From the IMG/VR virus record IMGVR_UViG_3300032330_000731, positions 1 to 60,008 of that record: DNA of 60,008 nt; one strand, written 5' to 3'. Shown here piece by piece: positions 7,072 through 54,786 of this stretch (within the stretch, counting starts at the first letter, position 1; every line of letters begins with the position of its first letter). Both the position numbers and the translations under genes were made by a program. The notes under the pieces were generated by a model. That model did no database searches. It saw only the letters and a list, made by a program, of their open reading frames with translations, and was not told the origin of the DNA. Origin of the DNA: a virus. Lineage: Duplodnaviria; Caudoviricetes.

Positions 7072-7367
7072 ATTACCAAAACAAAAAACTACTTGAGATT
7101 ATCAGGGAATCTCCGTGCCAAGCCTGCGGGATTAGTGATGGCACTGTTGTTGCTGCCCATTCCAATCAGTTAAGAGACGGAAAAGGAAAGGGCATTAAAG
7201 CACATGATTACAGGATTGCCGCGCTTTGCTTTAAATGCCACTTTGATTTAGATCAAGGCAATAAGATGAGCAAAGAAGAGCGGCGGGAGTTCTGGGAAGA
7301 AGCTCACCGCCGCAGCATAGGATGGTTATTTGAATCAGGCTTGATTATTGTAAAGCCTTCTTCATAG
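7068..7367 (+). CDS. DUF1364/Ref-like HNH-fold zinc nuclease
   Basis: CQACG...AAHSN...GKG.GIKA.D...A.LC..CH. Confidence 0.75.
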   Translation: MNYQNKKLLEIIRESPCQACGISDGTVVAAHSNQLRDGKGKGIKAHDYRIAALCFKCHFDLDQGNKMSKEERREFWEEAHRRSIGWLFESGLIIVKPSS

Positions 7368-10300: not shown

Positions 10301-13300
10301 GGGCCAATAGTTGGTACTTCTTTACCGCTGCGCAGGCTAAACCTGGGCAGGCCAGTAGTCTTCACCTTGTCCTGCATGGCAGGGGTTACGTCGAAGCCGG
10401 GTTGTTGCACCCTTGCATCGTTAAGCAGTTGTTGCGTGGCTTGTTCTTTGGTTAAGTTAAATGCAATTGGCTCAAAATATGGGCCGTCAAATTCATCAAG
10501 CATGCGCTCTTCGATAGCGTATGTACCATCATCGTCTTTCACGATTCGTAAATCTTTACTGCGGGACAGACTAACTGTCCCCATCTGCCCGCCACCAACT
10601 TTTGGCAGCAGCTTCTTTACTGCCGTAGGTACGATGGTGTCGTAAAAAGCACGCATGCCTTTGGCTTCAATCTTTAAATCGTTGCCTTCGTAGTCACGGA
10701 CATTTTTCTTAAAATCGTCAGACGCGCCTGTTTTAACAACAGCCCCGGTTTCATTGATAATTTTGTCGGCCATCTCTTTACCGACAAGCTCTTCAAGAGC
10801 CTCTGGGGCGGCTCCATTTTTAGGCGTTATTTCTTGAGAAATATTGCTATCAATAGGCACCGCCCACAAAGTCCATTTTCCGTCTGAATGCTTAACAGCG
10901 CGGATTAGTTTGACCTGTTTATCAAGCGAAAATCTTTCAGTAGCTTGCTCCCCACGAACAAACGCCACCTTGTCATAGCCGCCTTCAGCGGCCATAACCA
11001 TGATGCGTTTGAGAGCGAGGTTTAGCCAGCCTTCGGTTTTGGTGACAAAGGGGGCTGCTGGAGGAAGCCCCATGCGCTTTGTTTCTTGAATCGCAAACTG
11101 TTGATCCTCGACCGGCATAGAGTCAAACTCTTCGCGGATCATTTGGTTTGCCTTTAAAACTGCCTCAATTGTTCCAGCAAAGCCTTTTTTCTTTCCTTCC
11201 TGGCCGAAATCACTTTGGAGTTCCTCTACAAACAGCACCTTATTACCATCAGCATCAGTGCGGTCGTTTACACGAATGTGGGCAAGGACGTTGGGCTGAT
11301 CCCAGTGGCTGGACTGGTAGTTGCTGTCCTCGACGGCCCTGCGGCCCCTCTGCAACTGGCGGAGCTTTTCGATTTCGTCAGCCGTCAGGTCGGCAAGCCC
11401 CGCCGCCCGGCCGTATTTGTCGAACAGCTCCTTGTTGTAGTCGTCGAGCGCGGAGTCGGGCTTCTTCTCCGGCAGCGTCAGCAATACCTCACGGTAGTTT
11501 TCACCACCGGGGAGGGTGTATTGGCCATACTTGGTGGGCTTTTCAACTTCAGCATTGAACAAATCACCATCAATATCCCTAAATCCACCCGTTGCAACAT
11601 CATCAAGAACTGTCTCCTCAACCTTTACACCACCTTCCTTTAGGTAGGTAAGAAGCTCATCCTTGGTAACTGTGCCCTTTTGTAGGTCAAGCCAGTCCTT
11701 TACACCTGACCATTCAATCTCATCAGGCTTTACACCCTTCTGCGTTAGGCCATTGATGTAGGCTTTCCAAGATGCTGCGGGAGCTTTGTTAGACCCTGCT
11801 TCAATCTTGTTTTCAAGCTCTGAGTACATGCCCAGCTTGTCACGCAGGCTGTAGCGAATGTCAGGATTTGTTTTGCTGTAGGTGCCAATGTTGCCTGTGG
11901 CTGATTTGATTTGAGTAGGCTCAAATGCGACAAATACATCCCCAAACTTTGGGTCAAATGTATTTTTAATAATTACGCCGTCGTGTTTTTGGGATTTTGC
12001 TTTTTTAATTAAATCAGCGTAAGAAATATCTCTAAATTCTTGCCCTTTCATGTCATAAACAAAAGGATTTTGCAGACTTAGGAATACCGGCATGATGTTT
12101 GCGCCGGACTTATTTTTTGTTAATAGAGTTTCAAACAAATCACTGGCTGCTTGATTTCTTGCACGCCACTCATCCGTCATCATCCAACCGTCAGTGCGGG
12201 CGCCCTTCGGCTTAAGTGAATCTCTATATTCTTGCGCATATTTAAATGCTTTTGCATCTTCTTCCGGCCATGAAGTAATAATCTCTTTTACCGAGATTTG
12301 ACCCTTTCTGGAGGCATTTCCTCCCGCGTACTCAGCAGCATTATCAGTTGAGTTTGTAAAGAAAAAGCCCTCGTATGCGCTTTTTGCTTTTGTGTTAACT
12401 CCAAGTGCATTTTTATTAAATTTAAAAATGTTTCCTGTAGTCCCGTGGTAAACCACCAGCGGCTCACCCTTATCATCTACCACCTTGCTATCACCAAACC
12501 AGTCTTTAAACGCTTCTGTTTTAGGAGCGCGCAGGCTGTAGCGGATTTTTACATTTTTATTAGCATCGTACTCAGACTTAATACCTTGATACTCTACAGG
12601 CACGTTATGGTTCAAAATTACCATCATGCCCATGTTAGGCACGGCATAGCCATCGTACCCCGCATCAACAATCAGCGACTCCATAGTATTGGCATCGCCG
12701 CGAGCTTTTGAGTAAATCTTACTTAAAGCAGCCGGTGGGATAATATTGTCAAATTTTTGAGTATAAACATAGCCGCCAACGCCAGACTCTGGCAGCGGCA
12801 TCGTTCCGTCTGTTTTCTCAATATAAAAGTAAACACGTTTCTTTACACGGTCATCCCAGTGCTGATCAAGCCGTCGAGCTTCTGCACCACGAAGGCCAGT
12901 GCCATACTTAGATGCGTCTAAGGTGTCAACTTTTGACTTGCCGTAATGAACGCCGCTAAAAGTAACAGAATCATCCTGCTTGGTGCCAAGGATTAAACCG
13001 TCCCTGGCAATTGCTTCCTTCCAAGTCCATTCAGGCATAAGACCAGTTTTTTGGTCCGCATAAATGGTGTCGGCGCCACTTGCTGTTTTGTTAAATTCAG
13101 CATTAGGACCAAAATTAACAGTTGAGTTTTGACCTCGCGTTTCGCTGGTCATTGCGCCAATAGCAGAGCCTGTAAACAGTTTTACATGAGCTTGCCATGC
13201 GTTTTCTTCGCCATCCGCCCTGAAGCCTGCACCTTCTAACCCATGCCCAAAAGCATCATGTACTGCGCGAAAAAGGTCATTAGCCAGAACTTTTTTCATC

Positions 13301-16300
13301 GGCCCATTGAGACTACCGCTAGGCCATTCAAAATCAGTTTTTGCCAATAACGGATTTGTGCTTACGTCCAAATCACTTGAGCCAAACCCAGCGGTCGTGG
13401 GGAAAACTCCCATCACTTGGTTTTTACGCAAATCACGAATTGCATTCCAAGGGGACGCAATGTAGTCTAAATTGTCTGCGCTATTAAAATCAATAAACCA
13501 GAATTTATACCCAGACTTCTTTAATGCAAGGTACTGATCGGTTGTTTGCTGGATAAGGTTTTTATAAGCCTCTTTGACAACAGGGTCTTGAGGATTATGC
13601 TGCATCGCCTCATAGGCGTCGGCCAGACGCTTTCCTCGGGCGGGGTCTGCCTTGACGTATTCCGTCTGCCGCCTTAGCTTTATTCCTTTGTCTTTTGCGT
13701 ACCGTTCAGCAACGTCAACAATTTTGGGGTCTGGCCCGTTAGCGCCTGGGACAGACGGAGCGCCTTGTAAAGGCGCAATTGTGCGGTCCTCTCCCCGTCG
13801 CTCTCCTCTGTCTCCGGGTTCTGCTGCTCGGATGGAAGACCTTGCCTTGCTTCCTTCGCGGCTTCCTTCATCGGGTCGAACGGCAGATTGTTTAGATCGT
13901 ACTTGTCCATTTTTTTCTCCTTCAACTTGTTGCAAGGTAGATTGTACGCTAGCTTGCGTTGCTTTAGGAGCCTTTAGCTGACCCTTAGCCACCTTGGTAA
14001 AGATTTGTTCTGCGATTTGATCAGACGTATAGAACCCGGTCCCGTTCAACGCAGACTTAATACCCTGAAACAGCATCTTCATGCGGGCAGTCAACGCAGC
14101 AAGCATGCCAGGAGGAGCCTTGACACTGAAGTCTCCAAAGGCATCAGCAATCGCCTCTTCAACAATCATGTCCATGTTGCCGTTGTACTTGACCATATAG
14201 GCGTCGTACCGGCTCATGGTCTTGCCATCAAGCTCTACCTGCCTGCTCTTGAGATACTGATCAATCCACTTACTATTAGCCTGACTGGTCAATGACTTCC
14301 ACTGACTGTCAGTGAAAAAGCCAAGCTCCTTTAAAGCATGGATGGTTTCATGCCTAAGAACACGCAAAGGATTGTCTGCATCAACAGCAATGCTCATTAG
14401 CTTTTCAGCATAAGAGCCTTCTTCTGCGGAGTTGATTTCTTCAATTAGCTTGACTGAAACATCCTTAAGACCCATGCGGGTAAGAATTGTTTTTAAAGCA
14501 TTAGAAAGCTGAACCTTCTTTTCAGCAATTTCTGCTTCAATCTTTTTGGTGTTCTCAGCCTTTTGTTGCTCAAGCTCTGCCCGCGTTTCTTTAGGAGCTT
14601 CTGTGCCGGGAGCTTCTGTCTTTTCGCGCAGAGATTCCTGAATAGGCGATGTTTGGAAAGCGTTAGGAAAATCTTTTACCAGCTTAGTGTTTTTAAACCT
14701 TAAAAGCGCAGCCTGATTGCCAGGGACTTGAAAAGACTGTCCTTGAAAGTTAAATGTGTGGCGGTTAGGAGCATTCGGAGCGGTAGACCCTTCAATTGCT
14801 TGATTAACCTTATCAAGAACAGTCTGCGCTTCTTCGTTTAAAGCAGTTACTGCCTTTGGAGCTTCTACGGGAGCTTCTTGCTTTGTTTTGCTGCCAGGAG
14901 TAACTTCAGTAATTGTTGTACCGAAGTGAATACCAGTGCCCTCGTTACCAATTGGGCTGGCTTCGCTATAGACCTCTACCGGGCTTAGGCCAACGCTGGG
15001 CGTGGTTTGATAAGGCACTGTAGCTAGTACCGTGCCGGCTTTTTTAGGACCGTAATCTTCTGTAAGCCTAAGCTCTAACTGCCCAGTAGGTTTATTGTCT
15101 TCAACGACAGGAACTAGCTCAGTGGCAATGTCTGCGTTTTGAAATACACCACCTACTTTGTTTACATCATCTGGGGTTAAGAATACAGTTTTAGCAGATC
15201 GCGGTTGCAGCCCAGTTGTGGTGTCAAGATGATTAGCACCGCTTCTGTTGCGCGTAGTGCTGTTATCGCTGTGATATGCGTATGTAGAACCACGTTCTGT
15301 TTTAAATGTGGAAACTACATCAGGCAAGTCTAGCAGTGGATTTACTGCAGTGGGTGCATTTCCTTCTCCACCAACAGGGACTCCAGCATCTTGCCCAGTA
15401 GGAATAGCTCCAGTTCGTTCAATTGACTCACCGTTTGCGGAGGTTCCAGCCGTGGGTTCCACAGCCACCGCAAGGTTTCCTCCACTTGGCTGTGCGACAG
15501 TTCTTGTAGCATCTTGTTCCTTTACAGATTGAATTTGATTAGCAATTGCAAGCGGTTGATTACCTGCTGCTAGTGCAGCTAACTCAGTGTTGGCATTGGC
15601 GATTTGGGCCGAAGGGTCTTGAGTGCCTTGCTGTAAATTACCAATCGCAGCCTGAGCATTAAGAATTTCTTGCTGAAGCCTGATTGTAGTTTGCTCTAGG
15701 CTTTCCCCTGCCCTTTGTCCAGGCTGAAGCGGGGCAGCAGGCGCACCTTGTCCAATAACGCCGCCAAGTACACCACCACCAATTGCACCAAGACCCGCAG
15801 CTTGACCTACACCTTGGGTCAATGAGCGGGTGGGATCAATCTGTTGAAGGTTGACATTGGATGCAAACTTGCCGCCACCTTCTTCAATCATTTCAGACGC
15901 AGCTTCGCCTAGTGCCGAACGAATGCGTCCTTCACCGGGAAGACCGGCCATCCTGCGTTCAATTGCTCGACCACCAGGAAGACGTTGGGCTAACAAAGAA
16001 ACAATGCCTGCTTCACCTGCGGTGGCTCTCGCCTTGCTAAGGGCTAAAGCCTGCCGGTCTTCTAAAGACATGCCAGGATATTGCTTTTCAGCTAAATCTA
16101 GTGCTTCTTTATAAGTGTCGGCACCAACATCTGCGCCCTGTTGTGCAACACCAGTGCCAATAGCCACCCTAGCTGCGCCGGCTCGGGCTGCAGCTTCTGC
16201 GGCTTCTTTGGTGCCATACTTGGCTAGTTGACGGGCGCCAGTTGAAAGAGCAGTGTACGCACCACCTGTCAACAACGCAGGAAGTAATTGAGGAACTTGC

Positions 16301-16743
16301 TCTGCGATAAATGAAACAAATAATGCAGGGTCTTTGATGGTAGAAGCTACTGCCGCGACACCCTCTGAAATAACACCATTCTTTGCTGCTTCTGCGATAA
16401 TTGATGCTTGCTGCGCTTCACGGGCCTTTAAACCTTCTGATTTAAGCGACTCAGCAAAGTCTTGCACCTTCTGCGGATACCGCATTGCTGCAGTGTCAAA
16501 GTTTCCAGTTGCCAGACCATAGACTTGACCCGGAAACTGGGCCATGCCAGCAAGGCCCTTTAACACAGCTACAGGAACATCTGCGGCCTTAAGGGCAGTG
16601 AGTTCAGTGCTTGGTGCAGGGGCCGGTTTAGCAGAGGACAAATGACTGCGTAACGCCTTAATCAGTAAGTTTGGATCAGCATTAGCCGGTCCTTCTACAT
16701 CATAAATTTTTCCATCAGGAGCCTGCACTTCATAGACCGGCAT
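7345..16743 (-). CDS. giant polyvalent virion/ejection protein (HExxH peptidase-like, ART-like domains, C-terminal LPD38-like)
   Basis: 3132 aa; HETIH at 14338..14352; FKDWFGDSKVVD..GEPLVVYHGT...QIKSA ART-PolyVal-like; IPFLNARIQG...IPIPFEIG LPD38-like; last gene of the virion arm. Confidence 0.85.
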   Translation of the reverse strand: MPVYEVQAPDGKIYDVEGPANADPNLLIKALRSHLSSAKPAPAPSTELTALKAADVPVAVLKGLAGMAQFPGQVYGLATGNFDTAAMRYPQKVQDFAESLKSEGLKAREAQQASIIAEAAKNGVISEGVAAVASTIKDPALFVSFIAEQVPQLLPALLTGGAYTALSTGARQLAKYGTKEAAEAAARAGAARVAIGTGVAQQGADVGADTYKEALDLAEKQYPGMSLEDRQALALSKARATAGEAGIVSLLAQRLPGGRAIERRMAGLPGEGRIRSALGEAASEMIEEGGGKFASNVNLQQIDPTRSLTQGVGQAAGLGAIGGGVLGGVIGQGAPAAPLQPGQRAGESLEQTTIRLQQEILNAQAAIGNLQQGTQDPSAQIANANTELAALAAGNQPLAIANQIQSVKEQDATRTVAQPSGGNLAVAVEPTAGTSANGESIERTGAIPTGQDAGVPVGGEGNAPTAVNPLLDLPDVVSTFKTERGSTYAYHSDNSTTRNRSGANHLDTTTGLQPRSAKTVFLTPDDVNKVGGVFQNADIATELVPVVEDNKPTGQLELRLTEDYGPKKAGTVLATVPYQTTPSVGLSPVEVYSEASPIGNEGTGIHFGTTITEVTPGSKTKQEAPVEAPKAVTALNEEAQTVLDKVNQAIEGSTAPNAPNRHTFNFQGQSFQVPGNQAALLRFKNTKLVKDFPNAFQTSPIQESLREKTEAPGTEAPKETRAELEQQKAENTKKIEAEIAEKKVQLSNALKTILTRMGLKDVSVKLIEEINSAEEGSYAEKLMSIAVDADNPLRVLRHETIHALKELGFFTDSQWKSLTSQANSKWIDQYLKSRQVELDGKTMSRYDAYMVKYNGNMDMIVEEAIADAFGDFSVKAPPGMLAALTARMKMLFQGIKSALNGTGFYTSDQIAEQIFTKVAKGQLKAPKATQASVQSTLQQVEGEKNGQVRSKQSAVRPDEGSREGSKARSSIRAAEPGDRGERRGEDRTIAPLQGAPSVPGANGPDPKIVDVAERYAKDKGIKLRRQTEYVKADPARGKRLADAYEAMQHNPQDPVVKEAYKNLIQQTTDQYLALKKSGYKFWFIDFNSADNLDYIASPWNAIRDLRKNQVMGVFPTTAGFGSSDLDVSTNPLLAKTDFEWPSGSLNGPMKKVLANDLFRAVHDAFGHGLEGAGFRADGEENAWQAHVKLFTGSAIGAMTSETRGQNSTVNFGPNAEFNKTASGADTIYADQKTGLMPEWTWKEAIARDGLILGTKQDDSVTFSGVHYGKSKVDTLDASKYGTGLRGAEARRLDQHWDDRVKKRVYFYIEKTDGTMPLPESGVGGYVYTQKFDNIIPPAALSKIYSKARGDANTMESLIVDAGYDGYAVPNMGMMVILNHNVPVEYQGIKSEYDANKNVKIRYSLRAPKTEAFKDWFGDSKVVDDKGEPLVVYHGTTGNIFKFNKNALGVNTKAKSAYEGFFFTNSTDNAAEYAGGNASRKGQISVKEIITSWPEEDAKAFKYAQEYRDSLKPKGARTDGWMMTDEWRARNQAASDLFETLLTKNKSGANIMPVFLSLQNPFVYDMKGQEFRDISYADLIKKAKSQKHDGVIIKNTFDPKFGDVFVAFEPTQIKSATGNIGTYSKTNPDIRYSLRDKLGMYSELENKIEAGSNKAPAASWKAYINGLTQKGVKPDEIEWSGVKDWLDLQKGTVTKDELLTYLKEGGVKVEETVLDDVATGGFRDIDGDLFNAEVEKPTKYGQYTLPGGENYREVLLTLPEKKPDSALDDYNKELFDKYGRAAGLADLTADEIEKLRQLQRGRRAVEDSNYQSSHWDQPNVLAHIRVNDRTDADGNKVLFVEELQSDFGQEGKKKGFAGTIEAVLKANQMIREEFDSMPVEDQQFAIQETKRMGLPPAAPFVTKTEGWLNLALKRIMVMAAEGGYDKVAFVRGEQATERFSLDKQVKLIRAVKHSDGKWTLWAVPIDSNISQEITPKNGAAPEALEELVGKEMADKIINETGAVVKTGASDDFKKNVRDYEGNDLKIEAKGMRAFYDTIVPTAVKKLLPKVGGGQMGTVSLSRSKDLRIVKDDDGTYAIEERMLDEFDGPYFEPIAFNLTKEQATQQLLNDARVQQPGFDVTPAMQDKVKTTGLPRFSLRSGKEVPTIGPKIDGTYLKRIQNIRDQIGNEYTSGKITFDEFQKRYDETNKEYVDALVFQKKLDESKPATSLEEVFPGFVSIPVGTKVLATWSDLHPSPTQATVVGSRDVRVGTKAYKFPVVDFNDGKKARTLTREDIKEVYAPRKFSLRSTFPQSTQASIDRITTARKDKGFISRMMEAIAPTAFSTYRQQYLNRYNQLGKYDKMLADQMSIPGLLADASSEAAALQSDLGAGLTASALGVHDRVGGIPVFRNGITVISNVNGTVGGPMQIFAKLTELGKGDPYIYQTYQQWAGSKRASRFNAQGIDTPYTAADLQEARNIEARYPEFVNIQKDYIKFNDGLVKYMLDTGIIDKEGAKKFSEHSDYIPFYRQLDGEATIGPNIFQSISGVKQPRKIKGGEAPLADFMETIVRNTQSIIQAGVKNTAAQRAVNVAMQLGPNFIKPLNYASSLPSDIVILEKGLKKYYRSSDPLWIESLKALNAADLPFNAFISGPANLLRTMVTKDPGFMLANMMRDSLAAHVTSGIKMVPIVDTIKNFTSAIAGKSPEFQALLNAGVLGGHEFSQNIEYSGKVLSKELRKKTGTTTTTEKILSPVTGLWSALEKGTTASDAATRIEVYKKTLAETGNEAEALFRALEVMNFNRKGNSPVIRVITAAIPFLNARIQGLDVLYRAGFGEINSANAEKVQKLFFIRGAQMMALSAMYWALTHDDDEYKKQESENRDNYWLLPSLGIKIPIPFEIGILFKVIPERILAYSFGDDTGQDFMKSMARQLSTTLAVNPIPQAALPVVEAVTNYSFFTQRPIVGQGMEGVAPGYQAGPGTTSVAADIGKALNISPMKLDHMIKGYSGTMGMYLMDVVDSVYSMNSDIEKPSKRLDQMPVLKRFLIDSEARGTVTAYYEMKNAADQVVRTDNLLERTFRFNDRADYLKENGKMLVAEEYVKTLEKTMKKFREMRIMVNSSSMSSDDKRDALRQITAAENKLTSNTQAMKKALQ
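13680..13910 (-). CDS. overprinted small protein inside the giant ORF (76 aa, MDKYDLNNLPFDPM...)
   Basis: alternative frame; SD GAAGGAG and TACAAT (-10-like, 13941..13946) directly upstream. Confidence 0.5.
   Translation of the reverse strand: MDKYDLNNLPFDPMKEAAKEARQGLPSEQQNPETEESDGERTAQLRLYKALRLSQALTGQTPKLLTLLNGTQKTKE
15342..15512 (-). CDS. overprinted small protein inside the giant ORF (56 aa, MLQELSHSQVEETLRWLWNPRLEPPQTVSQLNELELFLLGKMLESLLVEKEMHPLQ)
   Basis: hand translation in an alternative frame; SD AAGGA; amphipathic helical sequence while the main frame is low-complexity linker. Confidence 0.55.
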   Translation of the reverse strand: MLQELSHSQVEETLRWLWNPRLEPPQTVSQLNELELFLLGKMLESLLVEKEMHPLQ

Positions 16744-43597: not shown

Positions 43598-45094
43598 TTA
43601 ATAGTATTCAACCCTGCGACGAGGCAAATCATACTCTGCTTCATCTGTGTCAATTGTGATAAATCCACCTTGTCTAAACCTAATCAATGCTTGACTAGAA
43701 GAGTCCACAAGGTCATCGTTATCACCATTGGGAAAAGCTGCAAGTTCTTCCATCACTTCATCTGCCCATCTAGTCTCAGGGCACCAAACAACACCTGAAG
43801 CGAAAAGATCAGAAATAGCATTTACACGCGCAATCTTGTCATGTCCTTTGCCTGGGGTGTACTCAGACAATGGAATACCAATCTTCCTTAATTCATAAAT
43901 CAAAGGGGCACCTGCAGCCTTCTTTTCAATAATTAAGGTATCAGGCTCCCATTCCTTCCACATATCAAACGCAGCCTTCTTAAGCTCAGGAAACTCCATT
44001 CGTTTCTTAAAAGCATTTAGCAAGATGATATTTGGTTTTAAATTACCATACTTGTCAGGATGGTAAAAAACACCCCAAGTTGTACAAGCAGAGTAGTCAG
44101 CCCTGTTTGATTTTTCAAATGCTGTGTCCCAAGACTGAATAAGATAATCACAAGAGGGTGGGTCTTCTTTTTTCCAAATCTGCCATTGATCCCTCTTGAT
44201 GATCGCACCCTCTTCTGAGGTTGGATTTTGTTGGTACTGCGCTTCCCATTTGGATACAGGTAGTTCAGCCTTGAGGGCTTCTAGCTCTTCTTTACTCCAA
44301 AACGCAGGCCATAACGGAGTACCAGAAGGAAGGATTGCAGGGAACTCAATAACTTCCCACTCATTTACACCATCCTTCTCTGAGCCTTTAAGAATCTTTC
44401 CTGTTAAATCTCTGGTACTCCATCGAGTCATAACAACAACAATGGCCCCTCCAGGCTGTAAACGCTGACGGGGGCCTGATGTGTACCACTCATACACATT
44501 ATCAAAGATTGCAGGATTGTTTTGCTTTGCTTCCTGTTCACTATGAGGGTCGTCAATAATTAAAAGATCAGCACCCTTACCTGTTACAGCACCACCTACA
44601 CCAATAGCAAAATAATCACCACCTTTATTGGTATTCCATCGTCCTGCAGCTTTTGAATCACTAGATAGCTTTGTATCAAAAACTTTACTATATTGTTCAG
44701 AAGAAACTAGATTTCTAACTTTACGTCCAAAGCCTACAGCCAACTCCGCAGTGTGTGCTGTTTGAATAATCTTCTTCTCCGGGAACTTACCTAAAAACCA
44801 TGAAGGAAGTAAAAAAGAAGCAAACTCAGACTTAGTATGCCTAGGCGGCATGTTAATAATTAACCGCTTCAATTCTCCAGAAGCAACTCTCTCAAAAGCA
44901 TCAGCCATGATCTTATGGTGTTTACCTGAAATAAACACCGGCCACATCTGTTGAGTAAAGAACAAAAAAGACTCTTTACACCGTTCTACACGGTCAAGCT
45001 CCATTAAAGCAAATATCTTATTTCTCTCTGCTTCAGGAACTTGATCAACAATTGCTAAATAACTAGCAATCTCTTGTTTTGTCAAAAGACTCAC
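43598..45094 (-). CDS. terL: terminase large subunit
   Basis: MPPRHTKS Walker A, LLIIDD Walker B, QSWDTAF and DDLVDS nuclease motifs. Confidence 0.95.
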   Translation of the reverse strand: MSLLTKQEIASYLAIVDQVPEAERNKIFALMELDRVERCKESFLFFTQQMWPVFISGKHHKIMADAFERVASGELKRLIINMPPRHTKSEFASFLLPSWFLGKFPEKKIIQTAHTAELAVGFGRKVRNLVSSEQYSKVFDTKLSSDSKAAGRWNTNKGGDYFAIGVGGAVTGKGADLLIIDDPHSEQEAKQNNPAIFDNVYEWYTSGPRQRLQPGGAIVVVMTRWSTRDLTGKILKGSEKDGVNEWEVIEFPAILPSGTPLWPAFWSKEELEALKAELPVSKWEAQYQQNPTSEEGAIIKRDQWQIWKKEDPPSCDYLIQSWDTAFEKSNRADYSACTTWGVFYHPDKYGNLKPNIILLNAFKKRMEFPELKKAAFDMWKEWEPDTLIIEKKAAGAPLIYELRKIGIPLSEYTPGKGHDKIARVNAISDLFASGVVWCPETRWADEVMEELAAFPNGDNDDLVDSSSQALIRFRQGGFITIDTDEAEYDLPRRRVEYY

Positions 45095-45315
45095 AGGTCT
45101 TTCTCCACAACTTTTACAGAATAAAACTTACGTTTTGTATATTCCAAATGACCAGACTCAACAAGCCTCATAACAATCCTGTGCATATTAGACCTTGATT
45201 TCATCTTAAAACCTTTTGCTAAAGCCTCATACGATGGACTAATACCATGTAGCTTGTTATAAGCTTTAATAAAGTCCAATACAGACTGCCATCGTCTAGT
45301 CAATTTTTTAGCCAT
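45091..45315 (-). CDS. LexA-like DNA-binding domain protein (no protease domain)
   Basis: LT.R...VLDFI......HG.SPSY..LA......SRS..HR....L...G.L. Confidence 0.85.
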   Translation of the reverse strand: MAKKLTRRWQSVLDFIKAYNKLHGISPSYEALAKGFKMKSRSNMHRIVMRLVESGHLEYTKRKFYSVKVVEKDL

Positions 45316-45349
45316 GATTACATTGTAAATACAAGTGTACGCACTTATT

Positions 45350-45545
45350 TTTTTACAAAAATATATATACCGGGGGGTATAGATTAAGAAAGTGATGGGG
45401 GGGGTGTTAAATATAAGATATTGTAATGAGGCAAGTGGAAATTAGTGGATTAATTTGGGTAAGTATTAGTTTGAGTGGATTAGAGCGTTACTGTTGGACG
45501 GGTCACTGCTAACCACAAAGGGGTATACCCCGGTGGGTGGGTCAA
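45350..45545. other. G-tract/palindrome-rich intergenic region, candidate packaging (pac) site
   Basis: ATATATATACCGGGGGG, a G8 run, and the perfect palindrome GGGGTATACCCC (45520..45531) between terS and terL. Confidence 0.4.
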
Positions 45546-45590
45546 ACCATATCCACATATTCACCCAAACCCTCTCCCCACATTTACACA

Positions 45591-46187
45591 CTACGCCTTC
45601 TTCTTCGTGTTATCCAGCAGACGTAAATGCCCAGACAGTTCCTTCTTCAATTGATCGGCTGTCACGACTGGTGCTGTTTCGGATGTGGATTGTGTAAATA
45701 CGCCTGATGCTTTGCCGAGTAATTCAAGGGCCTTTAAACGTGATCCTTCCTGTTTATCGTTCCGACTATGCGCAACCAACTCCCTCAGCACATACCTTCG
45801 TGCCGCCGCCAAGTCATCCGACAACGCCTCTACTGTCTGTCCCCACGCATCATTTAACATTTGGGACACCCTCGGGTGCCGACTTAATTTGTACGCAGAC
45901 GATGCGATTATTTGATCTGAGCTAGTGTCGTTTGGATAAGCAGCCTTATAGGCATCCTTCATTGTCATCCCTGAAATGATGTTGTTAATAAACGCCTGCT
46001 GTGCGATGGTCAGTGGGCGTTGTTTGGGTAACCCCCTTAGTGTTCCGTCTGATCTAGGTTTTGGTCCTGGTGCGAGACTAGCTAACTGTTCCACTTCAGA
46101 CTTTTCCGCGTTTTCTAGATTTAAATCATCCTCAGCGTCTTGACGGTCTAACTCTGCCAAATAATCTCTAATCGGTGCTTTGCTCAT
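45591..46187 (-). CDS. terS: terminase small subunit
   Basis: LT..QQAF......G.....AY.AAY HTH; A..L...P.V; RLKALELLGK..G.F. Confidence 0.85.
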   Translation of the reverse strand: MSKAPIRDYLAELDRQDAEDDLNLENAEKSEVEQLASLAPGPKPRSDGTLRGLPKQRPLTIAQQAFINNIISGMTMKDAYKAAYPNDTSSDQIIASSAYKLSRHPRVSQMLNDAWGQTVEALSDDLAAARRYVLRELVAHSRNDKQEGSRLKALELLGKASGVFTQSTSETAPVVTADQLKKELSGHLRLLDNTKKKA

Positions 46188-46256
46188 TTTTGAAACCTCG
46201 TTTATGCGAACGACCATACCCTTATCAGGATAGTGCTTTGTACGCAGTGTAAACCC

Positions 46257-46300
46257 TTGTCCACAGCTTGTCCACATACTCTATCCACATCTTATCCACA
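46257..46300 (+). promoter_or_regulatory. four tandem DnaA boxes (TTATCCACA orientation)
   Basis: TTGTCCACA 46257, TTGTCCACA 46268, CTATCCACA 46281, TTATCCACA 46292. Confidence 0.8.
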
Positions 46301-46346
46301 AGACGTAAGCACCCGGAGTCTGCCTGTAAACCCAGGGTAAACCCGA

Positions 46347-46429
46347 GTCTTCTATAAGACCTATTCCCACTCTTATATAAGACACAAGACTAGTCTTCTA
46401 TAAGACCTGACCGCAGTCTTCTATAAGAC
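46347..46429. repeat. four 14-bp palindromic repeats GTCTT-(C/A)TAT-AAGAC with a 23-bp period
   Basis: copies start at 46347, 46370, 46393 and 46416. Confidence 0.92.
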
Positions 46430-46432
46430 CTG

Positions 46433-46476
46433 TGTGGATAAACCTGTGGATAACTTATGTATAACCCTGTGGATAA
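46433..46476 (-). promoter_or_regulatory. four tandem DnaA boxes (TGTGGATAA orientation)
   Basis: TGTGGATAA 46433, 46445, 46468; TATGTATAA 46456. Confidence 0.85.
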
Positions 46477-46672
46477 CTTCGTTGTATAAAAGAGACAAAA
46501 CGCCTAGGATCGACGAACGGACCACGGTTGATAGCACGGTAGCTATCTGACCATTAAACGCAGCCTGGGCCGTTTTAATGCGTTCTAGGGGCATGTATGT
46601 TTAGACAGTGCTTGTGCTTTACAGGCCAGTCCAGTCTAGGTGTTTACCCTAGTCATGCCTTTTTGGTCTTTT

Positions 46673-46689
46673 CTGGCACGGTGGTTGCT
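46673..46689 (+). promoter_or_regulatory. sigma-54 (-24/-12) consensus site
   Basis: CTGGCACG-GTGG-TTGCT matches YTGGCACG-N4-TTGCW; faces the early operon. Confidence 0.6.
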
Positions 46690-46857
46690 ACGCGGGCGCG
46701 CACGGGCGCACGTTGGGTAGATTGATTGATGCTTGTCGGTCTGACGCGAGAACGACCATCACTTAGGGTAAGCACCTAGGCTATCGTGTTTACAGTGCGC
46801 GCAGCAATCGATAGCATCGGGGCTGGTTTAACAGCCCATGATGGGCATGGAGTGAAA

Positions 46858-47370
46858 ATGAACAGAGAGCAATGGTTAATGCAGGCGGTGGAAGAACTGC
46901 GCCCACTATTCCAGGCTGCTGGATACTCTTTGCCCACCACTGTGCGGGTTACCTGCGGGTTCCCTAGCACTGCCCGACGCAGTGGCACGTTGGGTGAAAC
47001 GTGGTCCGCAGCAGACTCTGCGGACGGCGCCACGGAAGTGATGATCAGCCCGGTACTGGCCGGCGCTGCGGATGTGCTGGCGGTGCTGCTGACACAATTG
47101 TCAGTGGCCGCTGATGGGCGTAAGCATGCCCAGGTGCTGTCGGCTGTCGGGTCCAATCCTGATGACTATGCCGGCCTGCTGGCGGACCTGGGCGACTATC
47201 CCCATGCTGCCCTGGCACTGCCCACCAAAGCCACTCAGGTCACCCGCATGCTGAAGGCCTGCTGCCCCTCGTGCGGTTACACCGTGCGACTCACGCAGAA
47301 ATGGGTTAGCAAAGGCCTGCCCATTTGCGGCACTTGTGGTGAAGGGTTTAAATTGGAGGCTGCAGAATGA
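46858..47370 (+). CDS. SprT-like protein lacking HExxH, with C-terminal zinc ribbon
   Basis: REQWL...LRP.F...VRVTCGFP...GE.W....SADG..E..ISP; TRMLK..CP.CGYTVR...KW...GLP.C. Confidence 0.75.
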   Translation: MNREQWLMQAVEELRPLFQAAGYSLPTTVRVTCGFPSTARRSGTLGETWSAADSADGATEVMISPVLAGAADVLAVLLTQLSVAADGRKHAQVLSAVGSNPDDYAGLLADLGDYPHAALALPTKATQVTRMLKACCPSCGYTVRLTQKWVSKGLPICGTCGEGFKLEAAE

Positions 47371-48956
47371 GCCGCGCTATTGTTTCGATTCTCAAGCACC
47401 CTGCTAGCACTGTGCTGGCTGCCGCCCGCGCACTGGGCTACACCGGGGCAGACGACAAAATGACCGCCGCAGAATGGATCGTTGTTTGCGGGCATGTCCA
47501 GGCGTTTGAGGGGCTTGTCGCGTCAGCGCAGCCGGCGCCAATCCTGGCGTATAAACCCAGCACCGCGATGGCAGCACTGCCACCCGCAAAACCTGCTAAA
47601 CCTGATCCGGTGTTTGTCCCGGTTGTCAATGACTGGGGGCAGAAAGCGATGTCGGCCATTACTGCGGTGGACAATCAACTCCAGGCAGTGGTGGTGGCTG
47701 TTGCTAAGCTCACGGGTGATCTGTCGGGCATCGATTCCCGCGCTGACAGCGCAAAGCTGGCCGCCGCTACTGCCCGTTCAGAGGCTCAACGCGCAGCAAC
47801 GCAGGCGGGCGACATGGTGCAGCAGGCCCGCGCCGACATGCAAAAAACCGAGACCGAATTGCGCCGCGCTATCGCTGATGCGGTGGCCCAGTTGCAGGCC
47901 CGTCCCGCGCCTGTCATTGACCCTGCTGCAGTCGCTACGGAGGTCTCCCAGGCTGTCGCTGCTGCGTTTAAACCGTTTGCCCAGGCTGTGACTGATGCCG
48001 GCGCAGAATCGACCATCGGCGCGATGACGTCAGCTAGCATTGTTGATCGGAAAACCGCAAAACAGGTTTTCGGAGTGAATGTTAATGACGCAAAGGGCAG
48101 TCCGGTAATGGTTGATATTTGGGACCATCCCGGCGCCCCTGCGGTTGACCCGACCTTTATTTGGTCTAAACCCATTCTGCGGCACCTGCTGCTGTCGCAA
48201 TCGACGGGCGAAAATGTTTGGTTTGGTGGAGATAAGGGCACAGGTAAGTCTGAGACTGCCCGACAATTTGCTGCACGCACGGGCCGTGGATTTACACGGA
48301 TTAACTTTCACAAGTATTCCGCCCAGGAGGACTATCTCGGCGCGACTGGCCTTCAAGCCGGGTCTACCGCCTTCGAGCCGCAAGCCTTTTTGAAGGCTTA
48401 CACAAGCCCTAGCACGGTCATCCTGCTGGATGAAGTGACTAACGCTGATCCGGGCAATCTGGCGCCCCTGAATGGCCTGCTGGAGCCCGGCGCTGCGGTT
48501 TCAATCGGTGGTCACGTTTGGAGGCGTGCCCCGGGCGTGCTTGTCTTTGCTGCAGACAATACCCTAGGCAGTGGAGATCAGTCGGGCCGGTATGCTGGCA
48601 CCCGTGAGATGAATAGCAGTCTGATTGACCGTTTTCCTCGGATTGTGCGGTTTGATTTTCTGCCCATGAAATCGGAAGTGGAAGCTGTCGTCCGACATAC
48701 TGGGTGCGTGCCCGAGTTGGCAGAGCATATTCTGCAGGCAGTTAATATCGCCCGTCAAAAAGTCACTACGGGCGATATTGTGGACGCACCCTCGATCCGC
48801 TCGGTGATCGGTTTCATCCGTGCGCTGGCGATGATGCCAGTAGAGGATGCGTGGGCCTCCAGTATTGCCGCACGCCAGCCCGCTGAGTCTGCCCTGGCGC
48901 TGGAGGCTATCCGCACGGCATCAATTGATGAATCTAAAATTAAAGGCTGGATTTAA
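47367..48956 (+). CDS. MoxR/CobS-like AAA+ ATPase with N-terminal coiled coil
   Basis: GDKGTGKS Walker A, ILLDE Walker B, AADNTLG.G, LIDRF. Confidence 0.9.
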   Translation: MSRAIVSILKHPASTVLAAARALGYTGADDKMTAAEWIVVCGHVQAFEGLVASAQPAPILAYKPSTAMAALPPAKPAKPDPVFVPVVNDWGQKAMSAITAVDNQLQAVVVAVAKLTGDLSGIDSRADSAKLAAATARSEAQRAATQAGDMVQQARADMQKTETELRRAIADAVAQLQARPAPVIDPAAVATEVSQAVAAAFKPFAQAVTDAGAESTIGAMTSASIVDRKTAKQVFGVNVNDAKGSPVMVDIWDHPGAPAVDPTFIWSKPILRHLLLSQSTGENVWFGGDKGTGKSETARQFAARTGRGFTRINFHKYSAQEDYLGATGLQAGSTAFEPQAFLKAYTSPSTVILLDEVTNADPGNLAPLNGLLEPGAAVSIGGHVWRRAPGVLVFAADNTLGSGDQSGRYAGTREMNSSLIDRFPRIVRFDFLPMKSEVEAVVRHTGCVPELAEHILQAVNIARQKVTTGDIVDAPSIRSVIGFIRALAMMPVEDAWASSIAARQPAESALALEAIRTASIDESKIKGWI

Positions 48957-52038: not shown

Positions 52039-54786
52039 TTAAAACTTATCCACTAATTCAGAATACGTTCCTGCGGTTTTGTTATATAGCAAAGCCGTCT
52101 CGCCCTGGGTGCCAACCCATCTATATCTGCACTTCCAGACTGCAATCTCTACCATCTTGTCTGCCCGGTGGACGGTAATACCGCAGTCTGTTTTGGCCCA
52201 CCATGCCATTGAATTACCAGATACAACAACCTTGCCATTCCTCCGCGTGATGTATGCGCCTGTCGATACAGTCAAGCAATACACCTTACCTGCGTAAGGT
52301 ACAACAACCATATTTCGGGCGGGTTCAACCGTTCTTTCTTTTTCATTTCTGATCATTACGATATAACGGTCGTAATGATGAGACAGCGCCCCAGCGTAGG
52401 ATGAAATGTGCGCCCACATACCAAGCTCAATACATAGCCTCTGCACATCGTCTGCAAGCTGCTTGCTGGCAGTGTGATAAGTCGTATACCCTGATTCTTG
52501 TACGCTTCCGTCCCCAAAAATCATCCCGTCAAGCAACGCCTTCTTTGCTTCAATGGAAGATGACCATATCAGATTTGGAAGCCGCTTATTGGCGCAGCCT
52601 TCACCACAGTTTTCAATAACAAATTTCTGAAGCTCAGGGTTAGATCGCTTAAACATCCTGTTAACCCACATTGGCTTTTCGTATTCGCGTGCTGATTTAC
52701 GAACAACGCAAGAGGATTTGACGCCAAGAGCGCTTACAACTTCCCTTGGCAGACTAGAGTTCTCATCTACTTGGCAAACTGACAGTGCGCCCATAGACAC
52801 ATGCCCCTCCGCTATCCAAAAACCAACGTACCACCAGAACGGGTGGAGCGCATAGCCGTGATCAAAGTTTAAATTAGTAGGCGACGAGGCTTGGACTGGA
52901 TTGCCGACCATTGGAATAGACCAGCGTGATGTGGTTACATCCTCGCTATTGCAAAAATTAAATCCTTTACTCCAAGTGCATGGACGGCCCGTCTTTTTTG
53001 ACCCCTTAGTCTTCTTCCGGCTAAATGCAGGCTTAACCAACATTCTGTGGTTTGGAGTTATCAGGAAGTCGGTTCCATTACCAGACCAGTGATGCATTGG
53101 TCCGTCATGGTCGTATTCATGGATATGCTCCGGCAGTTCATAAAAAACATCCTGGGTATCTGGATTGAAGACGGCAACCCTATCTTCGTAGGATACTTGA
53201 GAGTGGTTGACCCATCCCCTCATCGTCAAGACTTCCGTATCTGACGAATAACACCCGCTAATGCTCATTCCATCCGGCCTGGGTTGATCGACGCCTGAAC
53301 GATTGACCTTACTAGGGTGAGCAACGAAAAATGTGTGGACATCGAACGCCTTACAGAACTTTTGAATTCTGGTCAGCATGTTACTGATTGCTTCTGTTTC
53401 TGTAGTGTTGTCCCGGGGAAGCTCAAGATAGTTATAAGGGTCAATCACCAAACCCCGGATTCCCATACGCTTTACACCGACCCTTGCTCTGTCAAGGATT
53501 GAGTCTAGGGTCGATGGTTCCTCTCCGTTTGAGTCGATGAATAGGAAGTGGTCATTCACCCAGTCAAGCGCAGCAGACTTTTCTGAATGAGACATGCGGT
53601 CCTTACCCTCAAAGAACCGTTTACCCGTGTAAATCTCCATCAGCCGGGATATATGAATCTCGGGTTGATTCTCAAAGCTACAAACCGCAAACTTCCAGTC
53701 ATCTTTCCTGGCAATGTTTACCATCATTTGATCAACGAAATTACTTTTGCCCGATGACGGATAACCCGTCACGACCGTAAGCTGCCCAGGTGCAACTGTG
53801 TAAATCTGGTCAACCGAGGAATATCCAGTCGAGAATCCCTTGCCTGTTCCTTTGGCGTATAAATCATTCAGCCTGTCTTCATACGAGGCTGCGATGGTCA
53901 GGCCGGCGATTGGATACGGCGCGGCAGCATCAATAATTTCATTAACCCTGACCCTCCCCGTCCGTGATGGGTCATTCCGTGATGGGTCAAGGAAGACTTC
54001 ATTCAGGTCTTTACTAGAGAACTTTGCAATCCTGCATTTCTCTTTGCCAATTCTGCGTGCCAGTTCTTCGGCTAACGCTTGGCCGGGACCATCCTGGTCT
54101 GTTGCTAATACTACATACGGTGCTGCGTCCAGTATCTCCCGCGCATTCCATACATAAGCAAACTTTTTATCCTCAGACGGCAGTACCTTTCCATCTGCGA
54201 CTTTGATTGGCGCCCCGGAAGGCACACTAACTGCATTTAAAACTCCAGACTCAATCAATGTCAGGCAATCAATCTCACCTTCGACAATGATGATTGGCTT
54301 GCCTTTTTCTACAAGGTCAATACCAAAGAAGTCATGCGCACCCCCGGCGTCTTGTGTAAAATCCTTTTCAGGGAACGATCTATATTTGGCAGATACTAAC
54401 GCCCCGTTCCTGAAATAAGGAAAACCAATTGCATCTGCGGTTTTGTTTAGGCGACTAAAGAATTTATCCGCAGCAAATAACTGCATTTTGTCTGCGGTTT
54501 CTTTAGTTATACCCCTTGTAAGTAAATAAGCATAATGTTTTTCTTCTAACTTATTACTGATAATTTCTTTAGTCACTATAGCTGCCAATTTAAACTCCCG
54601 TTTGGTCTTTGGTTGTATAGCGCCTGTCTCTTGACAGTGGTGACAGTAGTAAAGAACTGCCCCGTCACCCTTGCGGGTGAGCGTCATGTCTTTTGCCCTG
54701 CTGTTTTTTCTGTCTCCCGAGCATGCGGGGCAGGCTACTCTCGTTGATTCATTGAAGTCAAATTGCTCAATGAACTCAGGTGTCAT
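52039..54786 (-). CDS. Twinkle/T7 gp4-like primase-helicase, intein-containing
   Basis: N-terminal CPAC...CHHC zinc finger; TOPRIM (EGEID, DQD); GYPSSGKS; VIDPY; VAHP. Confidence 0.93.
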   Translation of the reverse strand: MTPEFIEQFDFNESTRVACPACSGDRKNSRAKDMTLTRKGDGAVLYYCHHCQETGAIQPKTKREFKLAAIVTKEIISNKLEEKHYAYLLTRGITKETADKMQLFAADKFFSRLNKTADAIGFPYFRNGALVSAKYRSFPEKDFTQDAGGAHDFFGIDLVEKGKPIIIVEGEIDCLTLIESGVLNAVSVPSGAPIKVADGKVLPSEDKKFAYVWNAREILDAAPYVVLATDQDGPGQALAEELARRIGKEKCRIAKFSSKDLNEVFLDPSRNDPSRTGRVRVNEIIDAAAPYPIAGLTIAASYEDRLNDLYAKGTGKGFSTGYSSVDQIYTVAPGQLTVVTGYPSSGKSNFVDQMMVNIARKDDWKFAVCSFENQPEIHISRLMEIYTGKRFFEGKDRMSHSEKSAALDWVNDHFLFIDSNGEEPSTLDSILDRARVGVKRMGIRGLVIDPYNYLELPRDNTTETEAISNMLTRIQKFCKAFDVHTFFVAHPSKVNRSGVDQPRPDGMSISGCYSSDTEVLTMRGWVNHSQVSYEDRVAVFNPDTQDVFYELPEHIHEYDHDGPMHHWSGNGTDFLITPNHRMLVKPAFSRKKTKGSKKTGRPCTWSKGFNFCNSEDVTTSRWSIPMVGNPVQASSPTNLNFDHGYALHPFWWYVGFWIAEGHVSMGALSVCQVDENSSLPREVVSALGVKSSCVVRKSAREYEKPMWVNRMFKRSNPELQKFVIENCGEGCANKRLPNLIWSSSIEAKKALLDGMIFGDGSVQESGYTTYHTASKQLADDVQRLCIELGMWAHISSYAGALSHHYDRYIVMIRNEKERTVEPARNMVVVPYAGKVYCLTVSTGAYITRRNGKVVVSGNSMAWWAKTDCGITVHRADKMVEIAVWKCRYRWVGTQGETALLYNKTAGTYSELVDKF
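52213..53253 (-). mobile_element. intein with LAGLIDADG endonuclease (347 aa)
   Basis: SISG|CYSSDTEVLT...GFWIAEG...LLDGMIFGDG...VYCLTV...RRNGKVVVSGN|SMAWW. Confidence 0.93.

Follow-up and report, generated by a model that had tools for sequence, protein, structure and literature searches.

A cassette of eight DnaA boxes lies in a 670-bp divergent control region, between the start of the small terminase gene terS (46187) and that of an SprT-like gene (46858), in the genome of an uncultured freshwater podophage (Table 1). The window, i.e., the whole stretch of DNA that was analysed, is the entire virus record of 60,008 bases, which on paper makes a circle of ~59.9 kb, and the genome is complete at that size. 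The end-repeat comparison showed an identical 123 bases at both ends of the record, and the end repeats of the records G002 and G003 are also exactly 123 bp long. Because the length is the same in all three records, these repeats are assembly overlaps and not physical ends; we take 123 to be the word size of the assembler. In Pfam and PHROG scans the genes proved to be those of a lytic, podovirus-like phage. Running from 46.2 to 7.3 kb, the minus strand carries terS, a 74-aa LexA-type winged-helix gene, terL and the genes for the portal, head, tail and ejection proteins and for a 3132-aa protein. The plus strand, from 46.9 kb round to 7.3 kb, encodes the SprT-like protein, a CobS-like AAA+ protein, a CobT-like VWA protein, an exonuclease, a Sak annealing protein, small ORFs and an endolysin. 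At 52-56 kb, a minus-strand island encodes RusA and a T7-gp4-type primase-helicase that carries a LAGLIDADG intein. The 3132-aa ORF (7345-16743, minus strand) ends the structural module, and its PHROG matches, which are to families of unknown function, are confined to the last ~700 residues. The intein (52214-53254) interrupts the primase-helicase gene (52039-54786, minus strand), and an intein-free allele was seen in relatives' contigs from two runs, which join 52213 to 53255 and skip exactly 1041 bases. No tRNAs were found in the window.

The original prediction had noted neither a polymerase nor a Rep protein, and this was borne out: the window has no match to PF00476 (DNA polymerase A), and Pfam, PHROG and NCBIfam scans of the ORFs returned no polymerase or Rep family. 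PolA, a core gene of the related marine HTVC023P-type phages (PMC9599517), was likewise found in 0 of 24 relatives' records, and it would appear that replication in the freshwater clade uses the host polymerase together with a primase-helicase of its own. An NCBIfam scan recognised no initiator among 22 proteins, a domain scan found no DnaA-type DNA-binding domain (domain IV) encoded by the phage, and the PDB had no sequence match to the 192-aa neighbour of the helicase; the only matches from a protein atlas were sestrin-like and were discarded for their low score. A nucleotide search with positions 45000-48000 of the window gave no match among cultured phages, and Rfam gave no match at E <= 1 for 46000-47000. 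By TerL, the nearest cultured relatives (51-59% identity) are 023Pt_psg01, the pelagiphages HTVC027P and HTVC023P and the lake phage DSL-LC04, and in 023Pt_psg01 and DSL-LC04 the gene order upstream of terL differs from that of the window. The closest TerL copies in genome bins (85 and 75%) come from bins labelled Burkholderiales and Burkholderiaceae, labels that give a weak hint of a possible host in this group.

Table 1. Features of the divergent region and its two flanking genes (window coordinates).
Feature	Position	Strand	Details
terS, small terminase, 198 aa	45591..46187	-	phrog_51 E 7e-10, phrog_1595 E 3e-5 'terminase small subunit'
PterS, predicted sigma70-type promoter	46239..46274	-	-35 TGGACA 46274..46269, 17-bp spacer, -10 TACACT 46251..46246
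Left DnaA-box array	46257..46300	+	four same-orientation boxes, 2/4/2-bp gaps
Left boxes	46257, 46268, 46281, 46292	+	46257 TTGTCCACA, 46268 TTGTCCACA, 46281 CTATCCACA, 46292 TTATCCACA
Right DnaA-box array	46433..46476	-	three perfect boxes and one 2-mismatch box, 3/2/3-bp gaps
Right boxes	46433, 46445, 46456, 46468	-	46433, 46445, 46468 perfect TTATCCACA; 46456 TTATACATA, 2 mismatches, weak
Palindromic repeats, core GTCTTCTATAAGAC	46346..46431	+	four copies, 23-bp-spaced: 46347, 46370 (variant CTCTTATATAAGAC), 46393, 46416
(T/G)GTAAACCC, two copies	46325..46344	+	third copy 46248-46256, inverted copy 46642-46650
Dyad TTGTATAAAAGAGACAA	46482..46498		directly after right array
Conserved non-coding block ATGCGTTCTAGGGGCAT	46578..46594	+	dyad ATGC-N9-GCAT; aligned in L004, L005, L009, L083
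Sigma54-type -24/-12 element TGGCACGGTGGTTGCT	46674..46689	+	perfect match; faces SprT/CobS/CobT-like operon, 198 bp from right array
Sigma70-like promoter	46771..46824	+	-35 TTTACA at 46789, -10 TAGCAT at 46812; bracketed by dyad GCTATCG...CGATAGC; conserved in L082
First gene of rightward operon, 170 aa	46858..47370	+	phrog_6361; actinophage homologues annotated 'SprT-like protease'

The eight predicted boxes, with their start-to-start spacing (11/13/11 on the left and 12/11/12 on the right), their opposed orientation and their four perfect copies, were all matched in the sequence. Seven boxes have at most one mismatch (four of them none) and one has two, and all four perfect boxes of the 60-kb genome fall in the cassette. 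The perfect box of the left array is the one farthest from terS, and the boxes that lie over the promoter are weaker (TTGTCCACA). Counted over the window, boxes with at most one mismatch number 28 against 13.6 +/- 3.5 in shuffled sequence, where 0/100 shuffles reach 28; a span of 220 bp has seven such boxes and four perfect ones, and none of 300 first-order Markov genomes exceeds 3 and 1, respectively. A chance origin of the cluster is excluded. According to the available text of PMC5716108, cooperative binding of ATP-DnaA needs boxes in the same orientation with gaps of 2-5 bp, and consensus boxes act as the cores of assembly. Here each of the two four-box arrays keeps one orientation, with gaps of 2-4 bp.

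The cassette had been described as symmetric, four boxes, a spacer and four inverted boxes. This is true of the boxes, but four AGTCTTCTATAAGACCT-like repeats, spaced at 23 bp, occupy part of the 132-bp "spacer". They are placed off-centre, 3 bp from the right block and 46 bp from the left, and the symmetry is confined to the boxes. Within 3 mismatches, the core GTCTTCTATAAGAC has 10 matches in the window against 3.5 expected (0/100 shuffles reach 10), and every exact copy of this palindromic core sits in the repeat array. The four repeats have the arrangement of iterons, i.e., direct repeats of ~20 bp at about two helical turns, and they look like the operators or iterons of a dimeric DNA-binding protein. 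No Rep gene adjoins them, the neighbours being the SprT-like gene and terS. Of the DNA nearby, this repeat array (46350-46400) is the least stable, and it ranks in the top ~0.5% of 30-50-bp windows. Since even such windows reach only ~65-68% A+T, the stability scan agreed with the prediction that the region has no long AT-rich unwinding element.

Further elements fill the remainder of the region. Relatives carry another dyad, TTTCAyAATGTGAAA or TGCACCAAAATGGTGAA, at the place that TTGTATAAAAGAGACAA takes after the right array. A dyad always follows the box cluster (relatives L021, L023, L028, L033 and L086; 46482-46498 in the window), with a sequence that depends on the lineage; in L023 and L028 it is TGCACCAAAATGGTGAA, ~115 bp upstream of a sigma54-like element, and it seems to resemble the NtrC enhancer consensus. 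In 12/59 relatives, a sigma54-like element with variable N5 occupies the homologous place on the plus strand, 261-402 bp from the start of terS. Perfect matches to the sigma54 consensus (TGGCAC-N5-TTGCW) occur three times in the 60 kb, at 46674-46689 (+), 7139-7154 (+) and 16144-16159 (-), against ~0.06 expected by composition on a rough estimate. A domain scan found no sigma54 activator domain in the phage. The element suggests that a phage operon may be driven by host sigma54, and our literature search found no report of a host sigma54-dependent phage operon. The sigma54-like element and the beginning of the SprT-like operon's leader are enclosed by a 19-nt inverted repeat (46633-46651/46764-46782, 89% complementary). 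The motif GTTTAAAC is common in relatives and weakly enriched in the window (5 copies against 1.7 expected; 4/100 shuffles reach 5). Copies of GTTTACANTGCG with 2 mismatches are at chance level (18 against 19.7 expected), and only its exact copies are notable, of which there are two, one before each divergent unit.

On the terS side, the start codon of the gene (CAT at 46185-46187, minus strand) has GAGG 8 nt upstream, and the N-terminus is conserved in relatives. The promoter PterS is predicted from a 9-of-12 consensus match; box 2 contains its -35 hexamer and box 1 lies within its spacer. The 8-mer TGCGTACA is found at the predicted terS start region (46246..46239) and again upstream of the winged-helix-terL unit (45343..45336), and it has 6 copies in the window against 1.7 expected, 5 of them on the late strand. 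The promoter rule used on the window was also run on the 260 bp beside terS in all 60 loci. This yielded 36 terS-facing sigma70-like sites in 34/60 loci versus 4 sites in 4/60 loci facing away. A box overlaps the -35 hexamer at 17 of these 36 terS-facing sites, and at most others the first box lies within a few bases (in L011, for example, TTGACA-16-TATAAT has a box 5 bp upstream). In these 34 loci the predicted promoter is thus placed at, or within, the edge of the cluster that is nearer to terS. Boxes that overlap or abut the core promoter, as at DnaA-regulated promoters, were thus found at these predicted promoters. The 74-aa protein between terS and terL (45091-45315, minus strand) consists of a LexA-type DNA-binding domain alone (Pfam E 2e-8); its gene is kept in relatives, often behind a CGAACGTTCG palindrome (13/56 regions), and it is a candidate regulator of the late genes.

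Uncultured relatives were gathered by searches with the TerL and SprT-like proteins, and 72 loci in which terS and the SprT-like gene have the same divergent arrangement gave 59 distinct intergenic sequences. The results showed that boxes are 7.5 times denser in these 59 regions than in their flanks (212 in 73.9 kb, or 2.87/kb, versus 137 in 359 kb, or 0.38/kb), and perfect boxes 34 times denser (106, or 1.43/kb, versus 15, or 0.042/kb). The box 8-mer GTGGATAA is the most widely shared 8-mer, being present in 52/59 regions. At least three boxes within 200 bp were found in 41/59 regions, two boxes in 5/59 and none or one in 13/59. In 33 of the 41 loci, 64-116 bp separate the terS start from the first box, and the cluster remains proximal to terS where extra small genes stretch the region to 1.3-2.3 kb; in three lineages it lies 330-345 bp from terS. 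By orientation, the 41 clusters comprise 6 that are all plus, 7 that are all minus and 28 that are mixed, the latter often with head-to-head pairs. Three records, of which two are ~85% complete and one is rated 100% (G006, G007 and G013), have no cluster at the locus and none elsewhere in the record, and Pfam and PHROG scans found no initiator in the extra ORFs of box-poor relatives. With PolA absent from 24/24 relatives' records, the presence of boxes could not be linked to its loss.

Comparison with single lineages pointed to a composite history of the cassette. The nearest relative (L082, TerL 96%) has boxes 1-3 in common with the window and lacks the palindromic repeats and the right block, in place of which it has unrelated sequence. 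In L088, L005 and L029 the homologue of the right block is their only cluster, which is all-minus. From these two homologies, the 4+4 symmetry is read as a lineage-specific mosaic in which two cluster types have recombined. L110/L111 and L108 also have convergent box sets, 123-145 bp apart, and the palindromic repeat recurs in L004, where three copies are interleaved with boxes, and once each in L005, L007 and L009. The pentamer GTTCG/CGAAC is enriched beside terS in relatives (8.6 vs 1.8 per kb) and GTTCG is found upstream of the winged-helix-terL unit in 38/56 regions. Its mean count per 160 bp is 1.83 in box-poor lineages versus 1.17 in the others, from which it would appear that operator-like repeats have replaced the boxes there.

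Given the enrichment of perfect boxes in the relatives' intergenic regions and the lack of a DnaA-type DNA-binding domain in the phage, it is well supported that the boxes serve as functional docking sites for host DnaA. To that extent the original prediction stood; the choice it offered, between an origin and a sink for DnaA, left out the association with the terS promoter. We propose that the cluster is a DnaA-gated promoter of terS and the late genes, which is the best-supported reading and to which we assign a probability of about 45%; the phage would thereby probably use host DnaA to time its late genes. The reading rests on the position of boxes 2 and 1 over PterS, on the perfect box upstream of them and on a geometry suited to cooperative binding, and it is also supported by the conservation of the boxes in the family, by the cluster being held next to terS and by the bias of predicted promoters toward terS. 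The distribution of TGCGTACA and the enrichment of GTTCG/CGAAC fit it as well. Inversion of one box abolished replication at the RK2 origin, so that orientation matters at plasmid origins, according to the available part of PMC4980987. A site that acts through occupancy tolerates free box orientation, which supports gating. Several observations count against the reading: DnaA boxes themselves resemble -35 hexamers, and PterS is a 9-of-12 match; eight high-affinity sites exceed the needs of a simple repressor; in the three lineages with the cluster 330-345 bp from terS it lies away from the promoter; the right array, 176 bp from the left one, has no assigned promoter; and 13/59 relatives manage with none or one box.

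Much of the same evidence can be read in terms of a DnaA-dependent origin, in which opposed filaments would open the 132-bp core, the phage T7-gp4-like primase-helicase would load, the host polymerase would copy the DNA and the four repeats would be iterons for a phage factor as in P1 and RK2. Two four-box arrays, each of one orientation with 2-4-bp gaps, reproduce the geometry of the E. coli DnaA-oligomerisation region as given in the available text of PMC5716108, the sequence of boxes, iterons and boxes is laid out like that of P1 with its two box arrays (PMC4980987, available sections), and the core is locally the least stable DNA. The position between divergent transcription units, a genome with no polymerase or recognised initiator (and relatives' records without PolA) and the recurrence of convergent sets in L110/L111 and in L108, where an A/T run follows two tandem boxes, would also suit an origin. 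Yet there is no AT-rich unwinding element and there are no 13-mer-type repeats, no Rep gene stands beside the repeats, and the number and orientation of boxes vary among relatives; 13/59 loci have none or one box, and in G006, G007 and G013, which lack a cluster anywhere, no other initiator was recognisable in the region. The arrays moreover point inward, the reverse of E. coli as judged from the R1 and R4 sequences and from the word 'leftward' in the part of PMC5716108 available, and the Sak, exonuclease and RusA genes offer a recombination-driven route of replication. GC skew in the window follows the strand of the genes, including the minus-strand island at 52-56 kb, and is therefore uninformative on the origin. 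On balance an origin is possible but somewhat unlikely. If the array were instead a sink or modulator that binds or inactivates host DnaA as phage copies rise, stopping new rounds of the host chromosome and altering DnaA-controlled host genes, then occupancy would suffice, which fits the free orientation; each genome copy brings eight sites, including the four perfect ones, and the host polymerase has to serve the phage as well. Head-to-head pairs in many relatives recall the DnaA-reactivating sequences (DARS) as presented in the available text of PMC6868365; the cores of datA and DARS loci consist of three boxes, one of which is opposed, or of a box set with an IHF site, together with a site for IHF or Fis. 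In the comparison with such cores, head-to-head pairs were seen in relatives, and each array of the window showed a single orientation. A fixed place is not required of a sink, however, while the cluster keeps its position at the terS promoter; box-free relatives exist; and no IHF or Fis site was identified, the stretch 46480-46670 showing no IHF consensus by eye. We regard this role as plausible but improbable.

The cluster is placed immediately upstream of terS, a common location of cos and pac sites, and this brings a packaging or DNA-entry element into consideration, in which boxes near the packaging site or a genome end would let DnaA, which is largely membrane-bound, hold or bend the DNA. 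In 15/48 truncated loci the contig ends accumulate at a distance of ~0.8-1 kb, within the gap that separates terS from the winged-helix gene, and the T5-like phages have eight boxes in inverted repeats in a non-coding terminal region, for which, in the available text of the preprint (10.1101/866236), a role of DnaA in the injection-stop region is proposed. That model is itself only a proposal, the 123-bp end repeats are assembly overlaps and give no physical end, and the contig of the source run crosses both the gap and the cassette unbroken; no molecule ends were seen in the contigs of four sequencing runs. Such a function is very unlikely in our estimate. The gap itself (45316-45590, 275 bp, non-coding) has G runs at 45370-45377 and 45397-45404, the palindrome GGGGTATACCCC at 45520-45531 and the conserved motif ACGCTCTAATCCACTCA at 45472-45488 (minus strand). 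The 15/48 truncated loci in which relatives' contigs end 250-750 nt upstream of terL are far above expectation, and one contig ends in a fold-back; the gap may hold a packaging site or a genome end, or it may simply be difficult to sequence. Finally, the 9-mers could be bound by a phage protein, such as TerS or a small winged-helix protein, and match the DnaA consensus by coincidence. Repeats close to the terS gene are known targets of TerS proteins, and the phage encodes several small helix-turn-helix proteins, but the motif stays at the exact DnaA consensus while TerS falls to 43-62% identity, GTGGATAA is the 8-mer shared by most regions, and the phage has no DnaA domain IV. We give this coincidence hardly any credence.

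Under the gated terS promoter, DnaA would bind first to the perfect box at 46292, farthest from terS, and ATP-DnaA would then spread cooperatively over the same-orientation boxes, 2-4 bp apart, onto the weaker boxes of the promoter, so that TerS synthesis would be off while active DnaA is abundant. Multiplication of the phage genome would add eight sites per copy, and the host replication machinery would turn over DnaA-ATP; the filament would thin, terS would be released and packaging would be coupled to replication. The right array and the four palindromic repeats may provide a second DnaA anchor and the input of a phage regulator. DnaA bound in this way might at the same time help to melt DNA or titrate DnaA; these roles are not exclusive. 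Taken to its full extent, the scheme would be a replication-counting switch, in which an ATP-DnaA filament nucleated at the perfect boxes shuts PterS until new genomes, with eight sites each, and replisome-driven hydrolysis of DnaA-ATP strip it, so that packaging begins once many genomes are present and the host origin is starved of DnaA; the same complex may fire the first round of phage replication. We consider the switch in this complete form unlikely. T4 late genes are coupled to replication through the sliding clamp, and the switch, if true, would be the DnaA-based counterpart of that coupling.

DnaA-controlled promoters and box clusters outside origins are known from E. coli (dnaA, nrdAB, mioC), from B. 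subtilis (box clusters) and from phage lambda (pR), and the array, read as a gated promoter, would be a variation on them. As in these promoters, the boxes overlap or abut a sigma70-type core promoter (predicted here), would act through occupancy and not orientation and are conserved beside one gene; unlike the cellular and lambda promoters, which have one or two sites, the phage has eight in two opposed arrays, on a lytic phage, at a packaging gene and in combination with a second repeat family. The DnaA-oligomerisation region of E. coli oriC, in the available text of PMC5716108, shares the two opposed arrays of same-orientation boxes, 2-5 bp apart, in each of which weaker boxes adjoin a terminal consensus box. 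The phage arrays differ from oriC in that they face each other, have no flanking AT-rich element or IHF site and enclose foreign palindromic repeats in their core, and in that the element is not universal in the family. P1 oriR and RK2 oriV also place box arrays beside ~22-23-bp repeats, with boxes at both ends in P1 (PMC4980987, in the sections available); unlike them, the phage has no adjacent Rep gene or AT-rich element, and its repeats are palindromic, operator-like and flanked by terS and the SprT-like gene. The iss of T5-like phages resembles the cassette in having about eight DnaA or DnaA-like boxes, symmetric and non-coding, in a lytic phage, with a function that is itself proposed. 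In the available text of that preprint (10.1101/866236), the iss lies in the terminal repeat and has box pairs 3 bp apart, within inverted repeats whose spacer is fixed at 52 bp. The boxes described here, unlike those of the iss, form tandem arrays around a 132-bp core at a promoter.

The phage belongs to an abundant group of uncultured phages of fresh water, which are relatives of the HTVC023P-type pelagiphages. DnaA is not mentioned in the main genomic paper on the HTVC023P-type group (PMC9599517), and in the literature on phage DnaA boxes the T5 preprint was the only report of phage arrays of this kind that we found. A phage that has neither a polymerase nor an initiator could use DnaA as a portable sensor of the replication state of its host. 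Nearly all bacteria have DnaA, which to our knowledge is the only sequence-specific DNA-binding protein so widely shared, and its site hardly varies among them. A family-wide DnaA array on the promoter of the gene that initiates packaging would couple late functions to DNA replication, simply and testably.
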